From Escherichia phage ZCEC14, in the sequence record OP168898.1: 64,000 nt of DNA, one strand, 5' to 3'. The notes under the pieces were generated by a model that saw only the letters and a list, made by a program, of their open reading frames with translations, was not told where the DNA came from and searched no databases. A program made the translations under genes and the position numbers. Below are positions 3,903 through 53,676 of this stretch, piece by piece (within the stretch, counting starts at the first letter, position 1; each line of letters opens with the position of its first letter).

Positions 3903-4703
3903 TTATACTCTTGGTCCGTAAATTGTTCCAACAGCACCCCAAGTTGGAGAAGACCCAAACACTGCATGACCAGACGCACCACCAACACCAACTTTAAGAA
4001 CTTTACCGCCGTCAGACCATGCATTCTGACCAGCAGCACCAGCATTACCACCAGCGCCGGAGTGTGCGTTACCATAGTCATAACCACCACCCGGACCTTC
4101 ATACGAAGCAGCACCACCGGAATAACCGCCGCCGCCCGCGGCACCGAAAGGTCGACCGCCACCGCCACCGATATCTTGCCAGTTTGCCCCTGAGTGTGGA
4201 CGATATGCAATACCACCGCCACCGCCACCGCCAGCAGCTATAACACCGTAGTTCCAAATACGAAGCCGTCCACCGATATCATTTTGAATAACATGACCGC
4301 CTTGTGTACCGTTACCGTCGCCTCCTGAGTGAGTGTATCCACCATTACCACCACGACCCCACATATGAACACCACCATGAATATTAAGAACAACATATTC
4401 ATTAGGCGTATCACCATACATAAAGAAAAGTGGCACATCTTTAGAATAAGAAACGATATCACCAACAATATTGAATACAATAGGTGCACCGCCAGCTTCA
4501 AAGCATCTATCACGGAACCACTGACCATTAAAATTGTGGTTTGCTGTTACGGTATGAATAATCTCTTTTGAGCGTCCGGCGAATTGGCTCATCCAACAAG
4601 GAACACCCAATCTTAATTGACCAGCCGCTTGACTCATCCATCGTTGTCCTGTTTCATTTACGGATGAACTTCCAATCCAACCGGGAACACCAACTATTGC
4701 CAT
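3903..4703 (-). CDS. 38: gp38 receptor-recognising adhesin, T2/T6 type, glycine-rich
   Basis: ATG at 4703 six nt after GGAG (track start at 4715 is TTG); 266 aa with poly-Gly motifs (GGGGGGG, GGGGG) between variable segments; position downstream of gene 37. Confidence 0.85.
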
Positions 4704-4716
4704 AATTATCTCCAAA

Positions 4717-4729
4717 GGGGCAAAGCCCC
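4717..4729 (-). promoter_or_regulatory. GC hairpin between gene 37 stop and gene 38 SD
   Basis: GGGG-CTTTG-CCCC on the - strand transcript, located between the gene 37 stop (4736) and the gene 38 SD. Confidence 0.4.
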
Positions 4730-4735
4730 TTGTTG

Positions 4736-7684
4736 TTAGAATTTAAAATAATTACTAATTTTGCGAGCAATTTTAGTGAAGAAAGGCGTTTTTAATTCTT
4801 TAATTTCTTCGCTCATTTCTTGGATAGCCTTAATTAAAAGAGCATTCACAGCGGAGTTAGAAATTGTCAGAACATCAGATCCATCAACTTCAACTTTAGA
4901 CACAGCTTCCGGTAATTCTTTTTCAAGATCCTGAGCAATAATACCAACTTCACGTTTAATAACACTACGATCTTTAATAGACTTAACCTTATCGTATGTA
5001 TAAACTTTCAGTCGGCATACTTTTTCAAGTGCTCCGTTTTCTAGCTCTTTTTTATTAATCTTAAGACGACCATCGGAACGAATATACACATCGCTAAAGT
5101 TACCATTACCAGGAGAATAGAAAGTACCGTCGTAATGAAATTCAAATACCGCGTTAGGATGACCAGCATCAGGAGAAGCCTCCGCAGATCCAACACGAAT
5201 AATTGCTTGTCCCCAATTATTAGGGACACGACGAATACCAAGATCGACGGCAGTTACAAACCCTTGATTGGTGATTACACTTCTTCCTTTAATAATTGGA
5301 TAATAACAATCCTGTGAAACATAACCATGATCGACGAATATTGGCGCTTCTACTCGCCATTGGTTGCCCCAATCACCTGGTTGACTAGCAGTCCAACGTT
5401 CACCATGAACATATAATCGAACGTTATTGACATGAGCCATTTCGACGCCTTTTGGACTTAGCGTGATATCTCCTGCGTTTGTAATGTATACACCAGCATT
5501 AGTAGCATAACTATAGAACGCTAATCCATTATCATCACCACCCTTACCAATATACCAGTTACCAGTCCCGTCTACGTCACCACGAATATGCAAAGAATTA
5601 CTAGCAGGTGCTGATAATACAATAGAATCACCTGGGCTTTGAATTGTCAAGCGTCCGGTCATAATATCACCGCTTTTACCTACGCGAGTATTCAAAGCAG
5701 CGTCTAAGTTGGTTGCATCGTTGTATTTCTTCCAGATTGAACCAGCAATGTTACCATCAGTGTTCAAGAATGCTGCGCCAGCATAAACTCGACTTTGTGA
5801 CATGAATCGGCCAGACGGCAAGAAACGCCATGTAGCTAATTCGTTAGCTGTAGTTCCAGTAGCGGATAAATCACCTTGAGCAATGATACGATATTCTGAA
5901 CTAGCAATATCCATACCAGAAGCCATAGTAATATTTGTTACAGTGTTTTTCTGTTTTACAATAGGAGCAAACTGGTTTTTATTTGAATCGTCAATGGCCT
6001 GATATAATGGCGCAATAGTAATATTCTGATTTGCGTAAGTATTTGAACCAGAACCGCTAGCAGGGCCTTGAATATATGATCCCGGAGCAATTGAAATTTT
6101 CTTATTAGCACCAAGATTAATATCAGCGGTGATATTTAGCAATCCCCTAAAGTTTTGTTGAGCAGTCCAAGTATGTGATCCGTCTTCAAGAACAACACGG
6201 CGACAAGTGTTAGTCCTGTTTCCTGGATTTCCAGCTATACGCACAACAAAATAACGGTAGTTTGTTTGGGATACAGTACCACGCCAAACCTGAACAGTAC
6301 GTCCTGTGCCAGTATGTTCGCTAGGACCAACGGAAAACATAACCAGGTTTCCATCAATCGTGCCCCAATCCATATTTGCTGGCATATTCTTTATTTTTTT
6401 CAAAGGAACGCTAAACATACTACCAGGAACAAAATCAAAGGTTTGCCAATCTAACTCCGATAATTGAGCTTTAATACCACCCATACCCAAAGTAATTGGC
6501 AGAGAATAAGATGTATATACTTCGTTCCATGCACCCCACGCACCACCAGTATATGCACGCTCAAAAATACGATCGCGAGTAGTTTCACCCGTTCCGGCAG
6601 TAGTAAATTTTTGGAAAATAGCACCACCAGAAGCACGCTGTTTAACTTCTAGCAAACCAACAATAACGGCTGGTAAACCTTCGCCTGTAGGGCAATTAAT
6701 AACGGCATCAGTGCCTAAAATATTATATAACCCAGGAGTTTTAAAATCATTCAGATCTCCATCATAAAAAGTCGCTGGTGTGACATTACCGACTTGTTGC
6801 CACGGTCCCCATTTAGGCGCAGAAGCATCCCATGCAGCAGCAAGACAGCGAGTATAAACAACACCAGATCTAGTTGTATAACGCTGAGTTCTTGTGTATA
6901 AACCACCCTCAAAAATTTCCAAAAATCCTTGCGCGGCTGCTCCTTCTTCTGGGTAATGACGGTCAAACGATGCAATAGAACTTGAACTATTTCGCCATAA
7001 GCCGCAATGTTCTAATTCTCCCAAGCTATCAAGGTCAATCGTTTGTGAAAGTGGACGAGTTGACGCTTGAACATTACGCCAAACTCCCCACGGACCGTTA
7101 ACACCGTTCCATTTAGCAGACAAAGATCGAACATATACGTTACCAGATCTTACAGTATATCTCTGAGTACCAGCAAATTGACCGGCCACAAATACTTCTA
7201 GTACACCTACGGCATTTTCTTCTGGGAATTTATTTGCCGGTTGCGCATTTGTTGAAGTAGATTTCGACCAAACCCCAAGATATTCTTCAACAGGCCCATA
7301 CTCATCTAAATTAGCATCAACCGGTAATTCGCCGTTATTTTTTATAAACGTTGTGCTATTGACATTTATGTCAGATGGAGTTAGCGTGATATCTTTTGAC
7401 CCATCAAAGGATATACCATTAATTTTCCTAGGTGTTTGCAATTTAGTAGCTGTGCTAGAATTTCCAATTAAAGTTCCAGTTATATTTCTATTAACAGTTA
7501 AAGAACCATCAATTGTTCCTCCATATTTTAAACCTAATTCTATAACATTGCCTGAGTCATCTTTTGTGAAAATTGCTTTATCTTTTAAATTAATAGCCAA
7601 TTCACCTTCGGCTAATACTGAAGCAGCAGGAAGTTGACCTGCGGTTTTGCTTCTTTTAAATTGTATTTGTTTTAAAGTAGCCAT
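4736..7684 (-). CDS. 37: gp37 long tail fibre distal subunit with C-terminal intramolecular chaperone domain
   Basis: 982-aa ORF, Gly/Ser/Thr-rich fibre sequence; last ~113 aa carry the SDGRLK motif typical of self-cleaving chaperone domains; synteny 34-35-36-37-38. Confidence 0.9.
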
Positions 7685-15019: not shown

Positions 15020-15669
15020 TTAAACTCCGCATGCCTGCTGGTGGTGAAAGATACATTGATGGTAAATCAGTTTATAAATTATACTTAATGATAAAACAAC
15101 ATATGAATGGAAAGTATGATGTAATTAAGTATAATTGGTGCATGCGGGTGTCTGATGCCGCTTATCAAAAGCGAAGGGATAAGTATTTTTTCCAGAAGTT
15201 ATCAGAAAAATATAAATTAAAGGAACTTGCTTTAATCTTTATAAGCAATTTGGTTGCTAACCAAGATGCTTGGATTGGTGACATCTCTGACGCTGATGCA
15301 CTTGTGTTTTATCGTGAATATATCGGACGCTTAAAGCAAATTAAATTTAAGTTTGAAGAAGATATTCGCAACATTTATTATTTTAGTAAAAAAGTTGAAG
15401 TTTCTTCTTTTAAAGAAATCTTTGAATATAATCCAAAGGTTCAGTCAAGTTATATTTTTAAACTTCTGCAATCGAATATAATTTCGTTTGAGACGTTTAT
15501 CTTGCTTGATTCGTTTTTAAATATAATTGATAAACATGATGAACAGACTGATAATTTAGTCTGGAATAATTATTCTGTAAAGTTAAAGGCTTATAGAAAA
15601 ATTTTAAATATTGATTCACAGAAAGCTAAAAATGTTTTCATTGAAACTGTGAAATCTTGTAAGTATTAA
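15016..15669 (+). CDS. 59: gp59 helicase loader
   Basis: 217-aa ORF matching recalled T4 gp59 (MIKLRMPAGGERYIDGKSVYKLY...). Confidence 0.9.
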   Translation: MIKLRMPAGGERYIDGKSVYKLYLMIKQHMNGKYDVIKYNWCMRVSDAAYQKRRDKYFFQKLSEKYKLKELALIFISNLVANQDAWIGDISDADALVFYREYIGRLKQIKFKFEEDIRNIYYFSKKVEVSSFKEIFEYNPKVQSSYIFKLLQSNIISFETFILLDSFLNIIDKHDEQTDNLVWNNYSVKLKAYRKILNIDSQKAKNVFIETVKSCKY

Positions 15670-15670
15670 T

Positions 15671-15694
15671 TGCTTATTATAAATAGATTATAAT
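15671..15694 (+). promoter_or_regulatory. candidate MotA-dependent middle promoter for gene 32
   Basis: TTGCTTAT MotA-box-like element 11-12 nt upstream of TATAAT (15689-15694); imperfect box. Confidence 0.3.
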
Positions 15695-15699
15695 TATCT

Positions 15700-15767
15700 C
15701 ACTGACCAGCTATGAGGTCATACATCGTCATAGCACCAACTGTTAATTAAATTAAAAGGAAATAAAA
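15700..15767 (+). promoter_or_regulatory. gene 32 translational operator (pseudoknot plus unstructured A/U-rich tract)
   Basis: nested complementarity TGACC/GGTCA and GCTATGA/TCATAGC at 15703-15735, then AU-rich AATTAAATTAAAAGGAAATAAAA before the ATG; matches the known T4 gene 32 autoregulatory leader. Confidence 0.6.
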
Positions 15768-18967: not shown

Positions 18968-19011
18968 TTATTAGCTTCATAAAATGTATTATAATTTATA
19001 TAAGGTACTAA

Positions 19012-19872
19012 ATGAAACAATACCAAGATTTAATTAAAGACATTTTTGAAAATGGCTATGAAACCGATGACCGAACAGGCACAGGAACAATTGCTTTGTT
19101 CGGTACTAAATTACGCTGGGATTTAACTAAAGGTTTTCCTGCCGTAACAACTAAGAAGCTCGCCTGGAAAGCTTGCATTGCTGAGCTAATATGGTTTTTA
19201 TCGGGAAGCACAAATGTCAATGATTTGCGATTAATTCAACATGATTCATTAATTCAAGGCAAAACAGTCTGGGATGAAAATTACGAAAATCAAGCAAAAG
19301 ATTTAGGATACCATAGCGGTGAACTTGGTCCAATTTATGGAAAACAATGGCGCGATTTTGGCGGTGTAGACCAAATTATAGAAGTTATTGATCGTATTAA
19401 AAAACTGCCAAATGATAGGCGTCAAATTGTTTCTGCATGGAATCCAGCTGAACTTAAATATATGGCATTACCGCCTTGTCATATGTTCTATCAGTTTAAT
19501 GTGCGTAATGGCTATTTGGATTTGCAGTGGTATCAACGTTCGGTAGATGTTTTCCTTGGTCTTCCATTTAATATTGCATCATATGCTACGTTAGTTCATA
19601 TTGTAGCTAAGATGTGTAATCTTATTCCAGGAGATTTGATATTTTCTGGTGGTAATACTCATATCTATATGAATCACGTAGAACAATGTAAAGAAATTTT
19701 GAGGCGTGAACCTAAAGAGCTTTGTGAGTTGGTAATAAGTGGTCTACCTTATAAATTCCGATATCTTTCTACTAAAGAACAATTAAAATATGTTCTTAAA
19801 CTTAGACCTAAAGATTTCGTTCTTAACAACTATGTATCTCACCCGCCAATTAAAGGAAAGATGGCGGTATAA
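19012..19872 (+). CDS. td: thymidylate synthase, uninterrupted (no intron)
   Basis: continuous 286-aa ORF matching recalled T4 Td exons; active-site region ALPPCHMFYQF present. Confidence 0.95.
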   Translation: MKQYQDLIKDIFENGYETDDRTGTGTIALFGTKLRWDLTKGFPAVTTKKLAWKACIAELIWFLSGSTNVNDLRLIQHDSLIQGKTVWDENYENQAKDLGYHSGELGPIYGKQWRDFGGVDQIIEVIDRIKKLPNDRRQIVSAWNPAELKYMALPPCHMFYQFNVRNGYLDLQWYQRSVDVFLGLPFNIASYATLVHIVAKMCNLIPGDLIFSGGNTHIYMNHVEQCKEILRREPKELCELVISGLPYKFRYLSTKEQLKYVLKLRPKDFVLNNYVSHPPIKGKMAV

Positions 19873-19895
19873 TTTTAATTTAATTGAGAGGATAT

Positions 19896-20159
19896 ATGAT
19901 TTTACGATTTAAAGATACTTCTGGTGTAGTTCTTTTTACACTTCCTAACCCAAGCGAGTTAGAAGTTCCAGGACCAAATCAGCCTATTATCATTTATGGC
20001 AAAAAATATTATACTCATAAAATGACTCGTGAGTATTTTGATAATAAAATTTCCACAGTTAAAACTTCTTCTGACTGTTACTACGATATTACTGTTTTAA
20101 CGGAAAAACAATATGCCGAATTATCACCGCGCGGGCCGTCTATGTCGGGTAGTGAATAA
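19896..20159 (+). CDS. hypothetical protein, 87 aa
   Basis: ATG at 19896 after GAGAGGA SD (track start 19884 is TTG). Confidence 0.45.
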
Positions 20160-20439
20160 ATATAAATCCGACTTTGATGTTAATATTCACCGCGGTACAT
20201 TTTGGGGAAATTACGTCGGTAAAGATGCTGGCAGCCGGGAGGCTGCCATTGAATTATTCAAAAAAGATTTTATACGTCGAATTAAATCCGGAGAAATAAC
20301 TAAAGCACATTTAGAGCCTTTACGTGGAATGAGGCTAGGATGCACATGTAAACCAAAGCCGTGTCATGGTGATATAATAGCTCATATAGTTAACCGATTG
20401 TTTAAAGACGATTTTCAAGTTGAGGACTTATGCAATTAA
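20113..20439 (+). CDS. hypothetical protein with Cys/His motif, 108 aa (DUF4326-like)
   Basis: ATG ORF; motifs RGTFWGN and [13 protein letters not shown]; resemblance to the DUF4326 family is from memory, not a search. Confidence 0.45.
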
Positions 20440-22694
20440 TTAATGTTATCAAAAGTAGTGGTGTTTCTCAGAGCTTTGACCCACAAAAAATTATTAAAGT
20501 TTTATCTTGGGCAGCTGAGGGAACATCAGTAGATCCTTATGAATTATATGAAAATATTAAATCTTATCTCCGTGATGGAATGACAACTGATGATATTCAG
20601 ACTATTGTCATTAAGGCCGCTGCGAATTCTATTTCGGTCGAAGAGCCTGATTATCAATATGTAGCTGCACGCTGTTTAATGTTCGCTCTTCGTAAGCATG
20701 TTTACGGGCAGTATGAACCACGTTCATTTATTGACCATATTTCTTATTGCGTAAATGAAGGTAAATATGACCCTGAATTATTGTCAAAATATTCAGCAGA
20801 AGAAATTACATTTTTAGAATCAAAAATTAAGCACGAACGGGATATGGAATTTACTTATTCCGGGGCGATGCAATTAAAAGAAAAATATCTAGTTAAAGAT
20901 AAAACCACTGGTCAAATTTATGAAACTCCACAGTTTGCATTTATGACTATTGGAATGGCATTGCATCAAGATGAACCTGTTGATAGATTAAAACATGTTA
21001 TTCGTTTTTATGAAGCAGTATCTACTCGACAGATTTCATTGCCAACTCCTATTATGGCTGGTTGTCGTACTCCTACTCGACAGTTCAGTTCATGCGTTGT
21101 TATTGAGGCAGGCGATTCATTAAAGTCTATCAACAAGGCTTCTGCTTCAATTGTTGAATATATCTCCAAACGCGCTGGAATTGGTATTAACGTTGGTATG
21201 ATTCGTGCCGAAGGTTCTAAGATTGGCATGGGTGAAGTACGCCATACTGGTGTTATTCCTTTTTGGAAACATTTTCAGACTGCTGTTAAATCATGCTCAC
21301 AGGGTGGAATTCGTGGCGGCGCTGCTACTGCTTATTATCCTATTTGGCATTTGGAAGTTGAAAATCTTCTCGTTTTGAAAAATAACAAAGGCGTAGAAGA
21401 AAACCGCATTCGTCATATGGATTATGGTGTTCAACTGAATGATTTGATGATGGAACGATTCGGAAAGAATGATTACATTACTTTGTTCAGTCCGCATGAA
21501 ATGGGTGGAGAGCTTTATTATTCTTATTTTAAAGACCAAGACCGTTTCCGTGAATTATACGAAGCAGCAGAAAAAGACCCTAATATTCGTAAAAAGCGTA
21601 TTAAAGCCCGTGAACTATTTGAATTGCTCATGACTGAACGCTCAGGAACAGCAAGGATTTATGTGCAGTTCATTGATAATACGAATAACTATACTCCGTT
21701 TATTCGTGAAAAGGCACCTATTCGTCAGAGTAACTTGTGCTGTGAAATTGCTATTCCAACAAATGATGTGAATAGTCCTGATGCTGAAATTGGATTGTGT
21801 ACTCTCTCTGCATTCGTATTAGACAATTTTGACTGGCAAGACCAAGATAAAATTAATGAATTGGCAGAAGTTCAAGTTCGTGCTCTTGATAATCTTTTGG
21901 ATTACCAAGGATATCCAGTTCCTGAAGCAGAAAAAGCTAAAAAGCGTCGTAACCTCGGTGTAGGTGTTACCAACTATGCAGCTTGGCTGGCAAGTAACTT
22001 TGCTTCTTATGAAGATGCTAACGATTTAACACATGAACTATTTGAGAGATTACAGTATGGACTCATTAAAGCATCCATTAAGCTCGCCAAAGAAAAAGGA
22101 CCTTGCGAATATTATTCAGACACTCGTTGGTCTCGAGGCGAATTACCTATCGACTGGTACAATAAAAAGATTGACCAAATCGCAGCTCCAAAATACGTTT
22201 GTGACTGGTCGTCGCTGCGGGAAGACCTTAAGCTCTTTGGCATCCGTAATAGCACATTATCAGCACTTATGCCATGTGAGTCATCTTCCCAAGTTTCTAA
22301 CAGTACAAACGGTATCGAGCCTCCACGTGGACCAGTCTCTGTTAAAGAATCAAAAGAGGGCTCCTTTAATCAAGTCGTGCCCAATATTGAGCATAACATA
22401 GACCTCTATGATTATACATGGAAATTAGCTAAGAAAGGTAATAAACCTTATCTTACGCAGGTAGCTATTATGCTGAAATGGGTTTGTCAATCAGCTTCAG
22501 CGAATACATACTATGACCCACAGATTTTTCCAAAAGGAAAGGTTCCAATGTCAATAATGATTGATGACCTTTTGTATTTTTGGTATTTTGGCGGAAAAAA
22601 TTTCTATTATCATAATACCCGCGATGGTTCTGGTACTGATGATTATGAAATAGAAACTCCAAAAGCTGAAGATTGTTCATCCTGTAAATTATGA
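20430..22694 (+). CDS. nrdA: aerobic ribonucleotide reductase large subunit
   Basis: 754-aa ORF, same length as T4 NrdA; N-terminal ATP-cone and catalytic motifs. Confidence 0.95.
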   Translation: MQLINVIKSSGVSQSFDPQKIIKVLSWAAEGTSVDPYELYENIKSYLRDGMTTDDIQTIVIKAAANSISVEEPDYQYVAARCLMFALRKHVYGQYEPRSFIDHISYCVNEGKYDPELLSKYSAEEITFLESKIKHERDMEFTYSGAMQLKEKYLVKDKTTGQIYETPQFAFMTIGMALHQDEPVDRLKHVIRFYEAVSTRQISLPTPIMAGCRTPTRQFSSCVVIEAGDSLKSINKASASIVEYISKRAGIGINVGMIRAEGSKIGMGEVRHTGVIPFWKHFQTAVKSCSQGGIRGGAATAYYPIWHLEVENLLVLKNNKGVEENRIRHMDYGVQLNDLMMERFGKNDYITLFSPHEMGGELYYSYFKDQDRFRELYEAAEKDPNIRKKRIKARELFELLMTERSGTARIYVQFIDNTNNYTPFIREKAPIRQSNLCCEIAIPTNDVNSPDAEIGLCTLSAFVLDNFDWQDQDKINELAEVQVRALDNLLDYQGYPVPEAEKAKKRRNLGVGVTNYAAWLASNFASYEDANDLTHELFERLQYGLIKASIKLAKEKGPCEYYSDTRWSRGELPIDWYNKKIDQIAAPKYVCDWSSLREDLKLFGIRNSTLSALMPCESSSQVSNSTNGIEPPRGPVSVKESKEGSFNQVVPNIEHNIDLYDYTWKLAKKGNKPYLTQVAIMLKWVCQSASANTYYDPQIFPKGKVPMSIMIDDLLYFWYFGGKNFYYHNTRDGSGTDDYEIETPKAEDCSSCKL

Positions 22695-22745
22695 TATAAT
22701 TTGACTCACGGACGAGTCACCAACTATTAACTAAGTGGAAAATTT

Positions 22746-23924
22746 ATGAGCACAGTTTTTAATACAAATCCAGTTGATGTTTTAAAAGAACCTATGTTTT
22801 TTGGTTCAGGTCTTGGTATTGCGCGTTATGATATTCAACGTCATAAAGTTTTTGAAGATTTAACCGAAAAGCAATTATCATTTTTCTGGCGTCCCGAAGA
22901 AGTAAACTTAATGATGGATGCTGCACAATTTAATAAACTTCCTCAGTATCAGCAGAATATTTTTACTAACAACTTGAAGTATCAATCACTTTTGGATAGC
23001 ATTCAGGGTCGTGCACCGTCTGCTGTACTTATGTCATTAATTTCAGACCCAAGTCTTGATACATGGGTTGCTACATGGACTTTTAGTGAAACTATTCACA
23101 GTCGTTCATATACTCATATCATGCGAAATCTTTATACTGATCCATCGAAGGTATTTGATGAGATTGTATTAGATGAAGCTATTATGAAACGTGCTGAATC
23201 CATTGGGCGTTATTATGATGATGTTCTGATTAAAACCCGTGAATGGGAAAATGCTAAAGAATTTGTAGAACTAGCTAAAGAATCTCCTGATGCTGTCTTT
23301 CGTTTAAACCGAGCTATTAAACAAGAAGCCGAAGCTAAACGTGCTTTAATGAAATCTCTTTACCTCTGTTTGCACGTTATTAATGCCTTAGAAGCTATTC
23401 GTTTTTATGTATCTTTCGCATGCACCTTTAACTTCCATAAGAACATGGAAATCATGGAAGGTAATGCCAAGATTATGAAGTTCATTGCACGTGATGAGCA
23501 GCTTCACCTTAAAGGCACTCAATATATTATTCGTCAGCTTCAATCCGGTACTGATGGTGATGAATGGGTTAAAATTGCTCAAGAGTGTGAACAAGAAGCA
23601 GTTGATATTTTCATGGAAGTTAACCGCCAAGAAAAAGATTGGGCAGTTCATTTATTTAAAGACGGCGATGTTCCTGGATTAAATACAAATAGCATGTGGA
23701 GCTTTATTGATTACTTAACTGTATCTCGTATGAAACAGTGTGGTCTTCCATGCCCAATTACCGATGCTCCGGTTAAACATCCATATCCTTGGATTCGTGA
23801 ATATCTTAATTCTGATAATGTTCAATCAGCGCCACAAGAAGTAGAACTGTCATCTTACCTTGTTGCACAGATTGATAATGATGTTGATGATAAAGTTATG
23901 ATGAGTTTTAAAAAATACTTTTAA
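22746..23924 (+). CDS. nrdB: aerobic ribonucleotide reductase small subunit, uninterrupted (no intron)
   Basis: continuous 392-aa ORF with the di-iron/tyrosyl-radical fold; starts 51 nt after nrdA. Confidence 0.95.
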   Translation: MSTVFNTNPVDVLKEPMFFGSGLGIARYDIQRHKVFEDLTEKQLSFFWRPEEVNLMMDAAQFNKLPQYQQNIFTNNLKYQSLLDSIQGRAPSAVLMSLISDPSLDTWVATWTFSETIHSRSYTHIMRNLYTDPSKVFDEIVLDEAIMKRAESIGRYYDDVLIKTREWENAKEFVELAKESPDAVFRLNRAIKQEAEAKRALMKSLYLCLHVINALEAIRFYVSFACTFNFHKNMEIMEGNAKIMKFIARDEQLHLKGTQYIIRQLQSGTDGDEWVKIAQECEQEAVDIFMEVNRQEKDWAVHLFKDGDVPGLNTNSMWSFIDYLTVSRMKQCGLPCPITDAPVKHPYPWIREYLNSDNVQSAPQEVELSSYLVAQIDNDVDDKVMMSFKKYF

Positions 23925-23951
23925 GGAGTGGGCCGCAAGGCCCATTTTATT

Positions 23952-23954
<3 letters not shown>
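23923..23954 (+). promoter_or_regulatory. split ribosome-binding site for denA (SD-hairpin-ATG)
   Basis: AAGGAG at 23923-23928, hairpin TGGGCC-GCAA-GGCCCA at 23929-23944, ATG at 23952; 23 nt linear spacing, about 7 nt if the hairpin forms. Confidence 0.5.
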
Positions 23955-25539
<1,585 letters not shown>

Positions 25540-51488: not shown

Positions 51489-51517
51489 GTCTAAATACCA
51501 TGTAATAAATATATCTA

Positions 51518-51525
51518 TATTTATA
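51518..51525 (-). promoter_or_regulatory. late promoter (TATAAATA) for uvsW
   Basis: TATAAATA on the - strand about 30 nt upstream of the uvsW ATG. Confidence 0.55.
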
Positions 51526-51538
51526 CTGAGGAAATATT

Positions 51539-52219
51539 ATGATAGATAAAGATTATATTGCAGAGCTGAAGGCTCTTGATGATAATAAAGAAGCTAAAGC
51601 TAAATTAGCTGAATACGCTGAACAGTTTGGTATAAAGGTCAAAAAGAATAAATCTTTTGATAATATCGTTGTTGATATTGAAGAAGCCCTCCAGAAGCTC
51701 GCTAGTGAACCTATGCCGGAGACTGATGGGTTATCTATTAAAGACTTAATTGATGCTGCTGATGCTGCAGAGGGATTAAAATATGACGATGAAGAAGTCA
51801 ATCCAGAAGCAGCACTTCTGATTGATTCTCCGGTTAAATCTGACATTAAAATTGAAGTAGTAGAAACGGATAAAATTCCTGAAAATACTGATATTTTGAT
51901 TGAAGATACTCCCTTTGTTGAAGAAAAATTTGAACAGGCTGTATCTGAGATTATTGAATCTGAAAAGCCGTCTGTATTTACTCTTCCGGAAAACTTTAGT
52001 CCGAATCTTCAGCTGATTGGAAAAAATCCAGGATTCTGCACTGTTCCTTGGTGGATTTATCAATGGATCGCTGAAACTCCGGATTGGAAATCTCACCCAA
52101 CTAGTTTTGAACATGCGTCAGCACACCAAACTTTATTTAGCTTAATTTATTACATTAACCGTGACGGATCAGTTTTAATTCGTGAAACACGCAACTCTTC
52201 TTTCGTAACATTAAAATAA
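51539..52219 (+). CDS. inh: Inh, inhibitor of prohead protease
   Basis: 226-aa ORF (T4 length) in the inh position; assignment mainly by synteny. Confidence 0.7.
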   Translation: MIDKDYIAELKALDDNKEAKAKLAEYAEQFGIKVKKNKSFDNIVVDIEEALQKLASEPMPETDGLSIKDLIDAADAAEGLKYDDEEVNPEAALLIDSPVKSDIKIEVVETDKIPENTDILIEDTPFVEEKFEQAVSEIIESEKPSVFTLPENFSPNLQLIGKNPGFCTVPWWIYQWIAETPDWKSHPTSFEHASAHQTLFSLIYYINRDGSVLIRETRNSSFVTLK

Positions 52220-52228
52220 GGATAACTT

Positions 52229-53646
52229 ATGGCTTTTACAGTTGATATAACTCCTAAAACACCTACTGGAGTTATAGATCAGACTCAGCAGTTTACTGCT
52301 ACACCCAGTGGTGAAACTGGAGGCGGAACTATTACCTATGCTTGGAGCGTAGATAATGCTCCCCAAGAAGGATCAGCAGCAACTTTTGATTATGTATTAA
52401 AAGGACCTGCTGGTCAAAAAACTATTAAGGTAGTTGCAACAAATACTATTCCTGATTCTGAAGCTGAAACAGCTGAAATTAGTACAACTATCACAGTTCA
52501 AAATAAGACACAAACGACTACCTTAGCCGTAACTCCTAATAGTCCTCCGGAAGGAGTAATCGGAACAGCTATTGAATTTACTGCCGCTTTAGCTTCGCAG
52601 CCACCAGGTGCATCTGCTACGTATCAATGGTACGTTGACGGTTCTCCTGTGGGCGAAGCAACTTCTGCTACATTCAATTACACTCCTGCCGAAAGCGGGG
52701 TAAAAAGAATTAAGTGTGTGGCTCAAGTAACCGCAACAGATTATGATGCAAAAGAAGTTACTTCTAATGAAGTGTCACTGACTGTTAATAAAAAGACACA
52801 GACAACTACTTTGGCAGTAACTCCTGATAGTCCTTCAGCTGGAGTAATTGGAACCCAGTTCAATTTACTGCTGCCTTAGCTTCTCAACCAGTTGGAGCGT
52901 CTGCTACGTATCAGTGGTATGTAGATGATTCACAAGTTGGTGGAGAAACTAACTCTACATTTAACTATACTCCAACTACAAGTGGAGTAAAAAGAATTAA
53001 ATGCGTAGCCCAAGTAACTGCTGAAAATTACAATGAAAAGGAAGTTACTTCGAATGAAGTATCATTAACGGTTAATAAGAAGTCAATGAATCCACAGGTT
53101 ACATTGACTCCTCCTTCTATTAACGTGCAGCAAGATGCTTCGGCTACATTTACAGCTAATGTTACTGGTGCACCAGAAGAAGCACAAATTACTTATTCAT
53201 GGAAGAAAGATTCTTCTCCTGTAGAAGGGTCAACTAACGTATATACTGTTGATACCTCATCTATTGGAAGTCAAACTATTGAAGTTACTGCAACTGTTAC
53301 TGCGGCTGATTATGATAGCAAAACTATTATAGCAGAAGGTCAAGTTCAGGTAACTGATAAAGTTGCTCCGGAACCAGAAGGTGAATTACCTTATGTTCAT
53401 CCTCTTCCACACCGTAGCTCAGCTTACATCTGGTGTGGTTGGTGGGTTATGGATGAAATCCAAAAAATGACTGAAGAAGGTAAAGATTGGAAAACTGAAG
53501 ATCCAGATAGTAAATACTACCTGCATCGTTACACTCTTCAGAAGATGATGCAAGATTATCCAGAAGTTGATGTTCAAGAATCACGTAATGGATACATCAT
53601 TCATAAAACTGCTTTAGAAACTGGTATCATCTATACCTATCCATAA
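52229..53646 (+). pseudogene. hoc: hoc (outer capsid Ig-domain protein) with duplicated Ig domain, interrupted by a 1-nt frameshift
   Basis: ORF 52229-52879 ends at TAG; the -1 frame is open from 52831 to 53646 and continues the Ig repeat and the C-terminal capsid-binding region; shift coincides with CCC at 52854-52856. Confidence 0.7.
52505..53080 (+). repeat. tandem direct repeat, 2 x ~288 bp, encoding Ig-like domains of hoc
   Basis: unit 1 ~52505-52792 and unit 2 ~52793-53080 are near-identical (AAGACACA..ACTACCTTAGCCGTAACTCCT...); unit 2 is 1 nt shorter. Confidence 0.85.
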
Positions 53647-53650
53647 TCAT

Positions 53651-53676
53651 AAGGGGCTTCGGCCCCTTTCTTCATT
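53651..53676 (+). terminator. rho-independent terminator after hoc
   Basis: AAGGGGC-TTCG-GCCCCTT followed by a T-rich tract. Confidence 0.65.

Follow-up and report, generated by a model that had tools for sequence, protein, structure and literature searches.

Whether a gene that reads as two open frames is broken, wrongly sequenced or somehow expressed from both pieces is the question raised by the hoc locus of Escherichia phage ZCEC14 (OP168898.1). The gene encodes the highly immunogenic outer capsid protein, and its frame is interrupted inside the second unit of a tandem repeat of immunoglobulin (Ig)-like domains, which adds the question of whether that repeat is particular to this phage. 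We have followed the locus in a 64,000-nt stretch of the genome, referred to here as the window. It is probable, in our view, that hoc has been knocked out by a genuine and very recent single-base deletion, from CCCC to CCC at 52854-52856.

The window is that of a T4-like Tequatrovirus, with ~97% identity to Shigella phage Sf22 and to RB3 to RB10 (24 kb compared), and the best match in the phage collection over 24 kb was 97.3%. The gp20 and uvsW genes of one 32-kb record, MG010123.1 ('Staphylococcus phage SAJK-IND'), are T4-like, with 98 and 94.5% identity to those of the window. It is implausible that they come from a Staphylococcus phage, and mislabelling or contamination of the record is probable. 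hoc is found on the + strand between inh and 24.3, a conserved late head-gene position that it also occupies in T4, and the gene order inh-hoc-24.3-24.2-rnlB matches the synteny of RB3, with uvsW upstream on the - strand. On the + strand, neither inh nor hoc is closely preceded by an exact T4 late promoter, TATAAATA; AATAAATA at 51505-51512 may be a variant of this promoter. A sigma-70 promoter scan is uninformative for hoc, which is a late gene. Elsewhere in the window, five homing-endonuclease genes of RB3 (segE, segG, mobE, I-TevI and I-TevIII) are without a match, the corresponding sites being ~51489-51538, ~15667-15767 and the nrdB/td/nrdA regions (~19000-24000), and a 44-nt insertion relative to RB3 is found in the rIII/30.9 interval at ~31714. 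The genes of gp37 and gp38 (3906-7684, - strand) are strongly diverged from those of RB3, whereas the adjoining genes are 97-99% identical. The distal tail-fibre protein gp37 is 57% identical in its C-terminal half and unmatched in its middle part, and gp38, the adhesin/chaperone, is 61% identical. This is the usual mosaicism of the host-range cassette.

The identity of the gene, proposed earlier from its letters, is confirmed by the protein that is obtained when the frame is restored. This matches T4 Hoc in the PDB (5vf3_Z) with E = 7e-216, along with four further capsid-structure entries, and the PHROG family phrog_1149, 'Hoc-like head decoration', with E = 2e-137; phrog_21694 matches residues 408-472 (E = 2e-41), and the Pfam families PKD, Ig_3 and I-set score above their cut-offs. 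The alignment with T4 Hoc consists of two blocks, in which restored residues 1-106 correspond to T4 residues 1-106 and restored residues 189-472 to T4 residues 93-376. It skips the first tandem unit, in agreement with the earlier proposal of one Ig domain more than in the 376-aa T4 protein. The N-terminal part is a string of Ig-like domains, with four units of ~96 aa ahead of the C-terminal domain. In T4 Hoc, the capsid-binding domain comprises residues 281-376 (Fokine et al. 2023, PMC10385173), and the homologous restored residues 377-472 of ZCEC14 are nearly identical to it and out of frame. The features of the locus are collected in Table 1.

Table 1. Features of the hoc locus of ZCEC14, with positions numbered from the first letter of the window
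Feature	Position	Strand	Basis
inh, inhibitor of gp21 prohead protease, intact, upstream of hoc	51539..52219	+	98% aa identity to RB3 Inh, full length
hoc (highly immunogenic outer capsid protein), 472-aa allele class, with 1-nt deletion	52229..53646	+	T4 Hoc, PHROG and Pfam matches; synteny
Frame-0 ORF, 216 aa: 209 native Hoc residues and missense tail QFNLLLP	52229..52879	+	ORF list, alignment
Tandem unit 1, 288 nt, 96 aa; Ig-like domain absent from T4 Hoc	52505..52792	+	Tandem Repeats Finder, 5vf3_Z alignment
Tandem unit 2, 287 nt as found (288 restored); orthologue of T4 Hoc domain 2, contains the deletion	52793..53079	+	
C3 run, site of the 1-nt deletion	52854..52856	+	C4 in aligned relatives; C5 in BCPEco_001
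Rest of hoc, -1 frame, restored residues 210-472	52857..53646	+	Free of further stop or indel
Premature frame-0 stop, TAG	52877..52879	+	Sequence, ORF list
Downstream ORF, 186 aa, from first in-frame ATG; last Ig and capsid-binding domain; putative restart product	53086..53646	+	
C-terminal capsid-binding domain (equivalent of T4 Hoc 281-376), out of frame with the start codon	53356..53643	+	5vf3_Z alignment
Intrinsic-terminator-like hairpin 3' of hoc	53651..53668	+	GGGGCTTCGGCCCC then T-run

The tandem repeat is the more conspicuous feature of the gene and the more readily explained. A single array, 52505-53082, was detected by Tandem Repeats Finder (period 287, 2.0 copies, 76% matches), and a repeat search broke it into two segments, one spaced at 288 nt and the other at 287 nt, as expected from a 1-nt deletion inside unit 2. 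The two units are 75% identical in nucleotides (218/289) and 80% in amino acids (77/96), and the duplication is therefore old. The sequence-only reading was right that there is a tandem Ig duplication with two units; its description of them as near-identical is not upheld by these values. Among 49 full-length matches, drawn evenly down the ranking of matching Tequatrovirus records, hoc falls into two size classes, one of ~1419 nt (20/49) and a T4-type class of ~1131 nt (29/49), and the two-unit gene of 1419 nt is found in hundreds of records. The GenBank record for hoc of RB30 (AY101183) even carries the annotation 'intragenic repeat led to appearance of additional immunoglobulin-like domain'. 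A recent or phage-specific duplication is ruled out by the identity of the units and by this wide occurrence, and so too is a repeat created during assembly, given that an equal two-unit gene is present in hundreds of records and annotated in RB30. The closest intact protein to restored Hoc in a protein search is the 472-aa Hoc of BF15, with 96% identity, and there are many other proteins of 472 aa. The ZCEC14 allele is thus a member of the common 472-aa class, and the duplication is not particular to it.

Longer forms are also on record. Hoc proteins of 568-570 aa, for example those of Escherichia phages UGKSEcP1 and UGKSEcP2, are ~80% identical to the restored protein and appear to hold three copies of the 96-aa unit, and the copy number of the unit within the genus would therefore range from 1 to 3. 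Across 650 Hoc homologues, the number of Ig domains is variable and reaches up to ten (Fokine et al. 2023, PMC10385173). Two full-length homologues are entered at NCBI as 'endonuclease [Shigella sonnei]' and 'endonuclease [Bacillus cereus]'; the probable reason is that phage DNA contaminated the bacterial assemblies and that the product was misnamed.

The description of the frame break in the sequence-only reading stands in all its main points. Frame 0 ends at TAG 52877-52879, 216 codons from 52229, and its 209 native residues cover Ig1, the additional Ig domain and 21 residues at the start of the one that follows. The -1 frame, said to carry the remainder of the gene, is open from 52831 through TAA 53644-53646, and the insertion of one C gives a 1419-nt ORF of 472 codons, the length predicted for the fused protein. 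No single uninterrupted frame runs from the Ig domains to the capsid-binding domain: TAG 52877-52879 intervenes after the 1-nt deletion. Comparison of hoc with close relatives, which had been proposed as a check, places the shift where it had been put, at CCC 52854-52856. The three most similar records, SHFML-11 and BCPSen_003 (95.2% identity each) and BF15 (94.8%), were aligned, and the window has a single 1-nt gap relative to all three, reading ACCCAG (52853-52858) against ACCCCAG, or, in letters, GGAACCCAG in the window against GGAACCCCAG/GGAACCCCGG in the relatives. RB3 is also one C longer than the window at this run.

The shortened run appears to be private to ZCEC14. An 81-nt query centred on the deletion matched 371 phage records, none of them with at least 99% identity, and all 30 matches listed, of the 371, span 82 nt, one base more than the query. 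A 31-mer with three Cs was not found in IMG/VR, metagenome contigs or genome contigs; its version with four Cs was found in IMG/VR. Neither the 216-aa nor the 186-aa product gave a hit in an exact look-up. A change at the same run is seen in PV295200.1 (Escherichia phage vB_Eco_BCPEco_001), in which hoc has C5 at nt ~625, where the window has C3; the same gene has a G5 frameshift at nt 38, which makes a net change of +2.

A shift between two long open frames invites the suggestion that full-length Hoc is still produced, via programmed -1 ribosomal frameshifting or transcriptional slippage. The one feature that lends itself to this is a hairpin in the RNA downstream of the about 52-nt overlap of the two frames (52831-52879), with a folding energy of -32.4 kcal/mol and z = -2.0, yet 7 of 200 shuffled sequences were equally stable. 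No slippery heptamer of the form X XXY YYZ occurs in the zero frame in 52826-52879, as had been pointed out from the sequence, and a run of three Cs is much too short for slippage by RNA polymerase. Furthermore, the shift is not shared, none of the 371 matches being at least 99% identical and all 30 of those listed being one base longer; the two-frame arrangement is not seen in any of the relatives listed. The aligned relatives use one frame, and a recoding signal therefore cannot have been selected. With no heptamer, no conservation and a marginal downstream fold, both forms of recoding were rejected as extremely improbable, in keeping with the earlier judgement on programmed frameshifting.

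The condition of the sequence beyond the shift bears on the age of the lesion. Relative to BF15, the out-of-frame part contains 30 synonymous and 9 non-synonymous codon differences, a ratio like that of the part upstream of the shift (20 and 8), and against residues 114-376 of RB3 Hoc it aligns as one high-scoring segment (HSP) with 97% aa identity. The out-of-frame part still looks selected, with no added stop or indel; purifying selection must have acted on it until a short time ago, and the lesion is therefore very recent. An old pseudogene is ruled out on the same grounds. The sequence-only reading had offered a natural pseudogene and a homopolymer error as the two alternatives, and this is the right pair to consider; however, 'pseudogene' overstates the age of the lesion, and 'fresh knockout' fits the gene better.

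The perfect preservation of this part of hoc is also what would be expected of the second alternative, in which hoc is intact in the phage itself (CCCC, 472 aa) and one C of the homopolymer went missing from the consensus in sequencing or assembly. We regard this as possible but distinctly less probable than a deletion in the phage. The lesion does lie in a homopolymer, the addition of one base gives a protein 96% identical to BF15 Hoc, and the opposite change in length (C5) in BCPEco_001 could mean that the run is error-prone in some chemistries. The privacy of the C3 state must be counted against a genuine mutation, as an error would look alike. The run is, however, a short one (C4), and hoc is the only broken gene among the ~80 checked in the window, despite hundreds of runs that are equally long or longer. 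Each of the about 75-80 orthologues of RB3 genes in the 64-kb window aligns in a single frame over all or nearly all of its length, with the exceptions of hoc and of gp37, the C-terminal half of which is too diverged from RB3 to be followed in the frame check. In a 62.6-kb alignment with RB3, position 52856 is the sole isolated 1-nt indel within conserved coding sequence; the remaining indels of a length not divisible by three fall between genes or, as compensating pairs, where the two sequences have strongly diverged. The assembly is therefore not full of homopolymer errors, and generally poor assembly quality was rejected for the window on the basis of these in-frame orthologues and the one isolated coding indel.

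A different line of evidence comes from the frequency with which hoc is broken in other phages. In a sample taken evenly down the ranking of matches, with the match span in each record as the frame test, hoc had a net or compensated frameshift, verified by alignment, in 5 of 49 Tequatrovirus records (~10%). In four of the 49, the length is not a multiple of three; the fifth is PM105, with two compensating indels and three CDSs. The two control genes gave no frameshifts, with 0/37 for gp20, the portal gene, and 0/43 for uvsW, and the difference between 5/49 and 0/80 is significant by a one-sided Fisher test (p = 0.007), these being samples of 49, 37 and 43 records and not a census. The control genes also contain more homopolymer runs of at least four bases in the window (31 in gp20 and 40 in uvsW, compared with about 18-19 in hoc). 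Error-proneness therefore does not explain the excess in hoc, and the absence of net frameshifts from gp20 and uvsW in 80 sampled genomes weighs against an error in ZCEC14 as well. The base rate may be inflated by sequencing artefacts among the other broken hoc genes, of which that of PM105 (302 annotated features, two compensating indels) is one candidate.

At least two broken hoc alleles are seen in more than one record. The hoc frameshift of T6 is identical in AP018814/NC_054907 and MH550421, and one of G4 to G5 at hoc nt 38 is common to Yersinia phage PST, Shigella phage SHFML-11 and three BCP phages, and looks like an inherited hoc-null lineage. As broken alleles recur across records, natural hoc-null T4-like phages must exist. 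The lesion in T6 (NC_054907.1 and MH550421.1; locus 572-1703) is one extra base in GGAGTTAAAAAGAAT, an A-run, with a stop at codon 162, and is annotated as two CDSs in one record and not at all in the other. PV295201.1 is among the records with G5 at nt 38, and for hoc of PST (NC_027404.1, 1601-3020) RefSeq annotates only a C-terminal ORF of 309 aa. The A-run of the SGVK(R/K)IKC motif, which recurs in each repeat unit, has +1 or -1 indels in NHEP10, FN, CE1 and PM105: in PM105, unit 1 has gained one base and unit 2 has lost one, and FN differs from its sibling F1 by one base of the A-run. Every hoc lesion examined is a 1-nt change in a short homopolymer, be it the G-run at nt 38, the A-run of SGVK(R/K)IKC or the C-run. 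A literature search found nothing specific on natural frameshifts in hoc.

Taken together, the clean assembly, the base rate and the recurrent alleles lead us to favour a genuine mutation over a consensus error, and we infer that the deletion is located in the phage, with replication slippage in the short C homopolymer as its most likely origin. A more ambitious proposal is that hoc is a recurrent target of homopolymer slippage, that phage populations are mixtures of Hoc-plus and Hoc-minus particles and that CCC in the window is the OFF state. A handful of cases is consistent with this, namely the CCCCC run of BCPEco_001 and the other tracts altered in T6, the PST lineage, FN, NHEP10, CE1 and PM105. 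The C-run itself has changed in length in two cases, to C3 in ZCEC14 and to C5 in BCPEco_001, which among ~19 runs of at least four bases could be a coincidence. We consider the proposal unlikely. If true, it would amount to a contingency-type switch acting on mucus adherence, aggregation and immunogenicity.

If the deletion is present in the phage, as we favour, translation from the normal start would yield a soluble fragment of 216 residues, with two and a fraction Ig domains followed by seven wrong residues. On the virion, Hoc of the T4 type is bound where each gp23 hexamer has its centre. The capsid-binding domain is absent from the 216-aa product, which should therefore not bind the capsid; no attachment to the hexamer centres would be expected, and the virions would be Hoc-less. 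The phage would tolerate such a loss, since laboratory growth does not require hoc, which the RB30 record (AY101183) labels as non-essential.

Particles might still be decorated if expression were split, with the 186-aa ORF (53086-53646) translated from its own ATG and the capsid bearing a stub with one Ig domain. This ORF holds the whole capsid-binding domain, and its ATG at 53086 is the first in-frame start past the shift, with a weak Shine-Dalgarno-like AAGAAG 3 nt upstream; gene callers annotate the equivalent ORF in the broken hoc genes of FN, CE1 and PM105. However, both the match to the Shine-Dalgarno sequence and its spacing are poor, and the ATG lies 207 nt past the TAG, too distant for translational coupling. 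The sequence encoding KK(S/T)MNPQ is also present inside intact hoc genes, and it has therefore not been selected as a start. Decoration by such a stub seems to us quite unlikely, and particles without Hoc are the outcome that we would predict.

The value of the finding is practical. In annotation, the locus should be described as hoc disrupted by a frameshift and not as two 'capsid and scaffold' proteins, and where ZCEC14 is used for Hoc display, in work on mucus adherence or in therapy, the presence of Hoc on the particles needs to be checked. More widely, about one in ten deposited T4-like genomes is frameshifted in hoc and none in two neighbouring genes of similar size, in what is a small sample. 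This suggests that loss of Hoc is common during isolation or propagation, again with the reservation of sample size. In one model, Hoc mediates the adherence of phage to mucus, and a frequent loss of the protein would bear on that model.

Viewed against known systems, hoc of ZCEC14 is ordinary: the gene is well known and dispensable, the long allele is common, and what is private is the single-base deletion. Its C-terminal capsid-binding domain hardly differs from that of T4 Hoc (376 aa; PDB 5VF3 chain Z, 8T1X and others); what sets the ZCEC14 gene apart is one more Ig-like domain (unit 1, 52505-52792) and the 1-nt deletion. The likeness to RB30 (AY101183), BF15 and many other Tequatrovirus phages with a 472-aa Hoc is closer still, the length and domain order being the same as those of the restored protein, but their genes are unbroken and read CCCC where ZCEC14 has CCC. 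In a recent preprint, homopolymers of at least six bases are proposed as contingency loci of T2 and T4, and switching is shown to be reversible and of high frequency (Gomez, Barrick and Waters 2025, bioRxiv 10.1101/2025.10.21.683753). The lesion described here resembles those loci, as presented there, in that the gain or loss of one homopolymer base shifts the frame of a phage gene, but a run of C3 (C4 in relatives) falls short of the length in that definition, and a term search of the main text did not find hoc. The nearest parallels are the genes of T6, PST/SHFML-11/BCP, FN, NHEP10, CE1, PM105 and BCPEco_001, in which 1-nt indels in short homopolymers have split hoc in the same manner as in ZCEC14, the genomes being complete in other respects. 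These differ in that most are insertions and lie at other sites, BCPEco_001 being altered at the C-run of ZCEC14 as well, and the C3 state is seen in ZCEC14 only.
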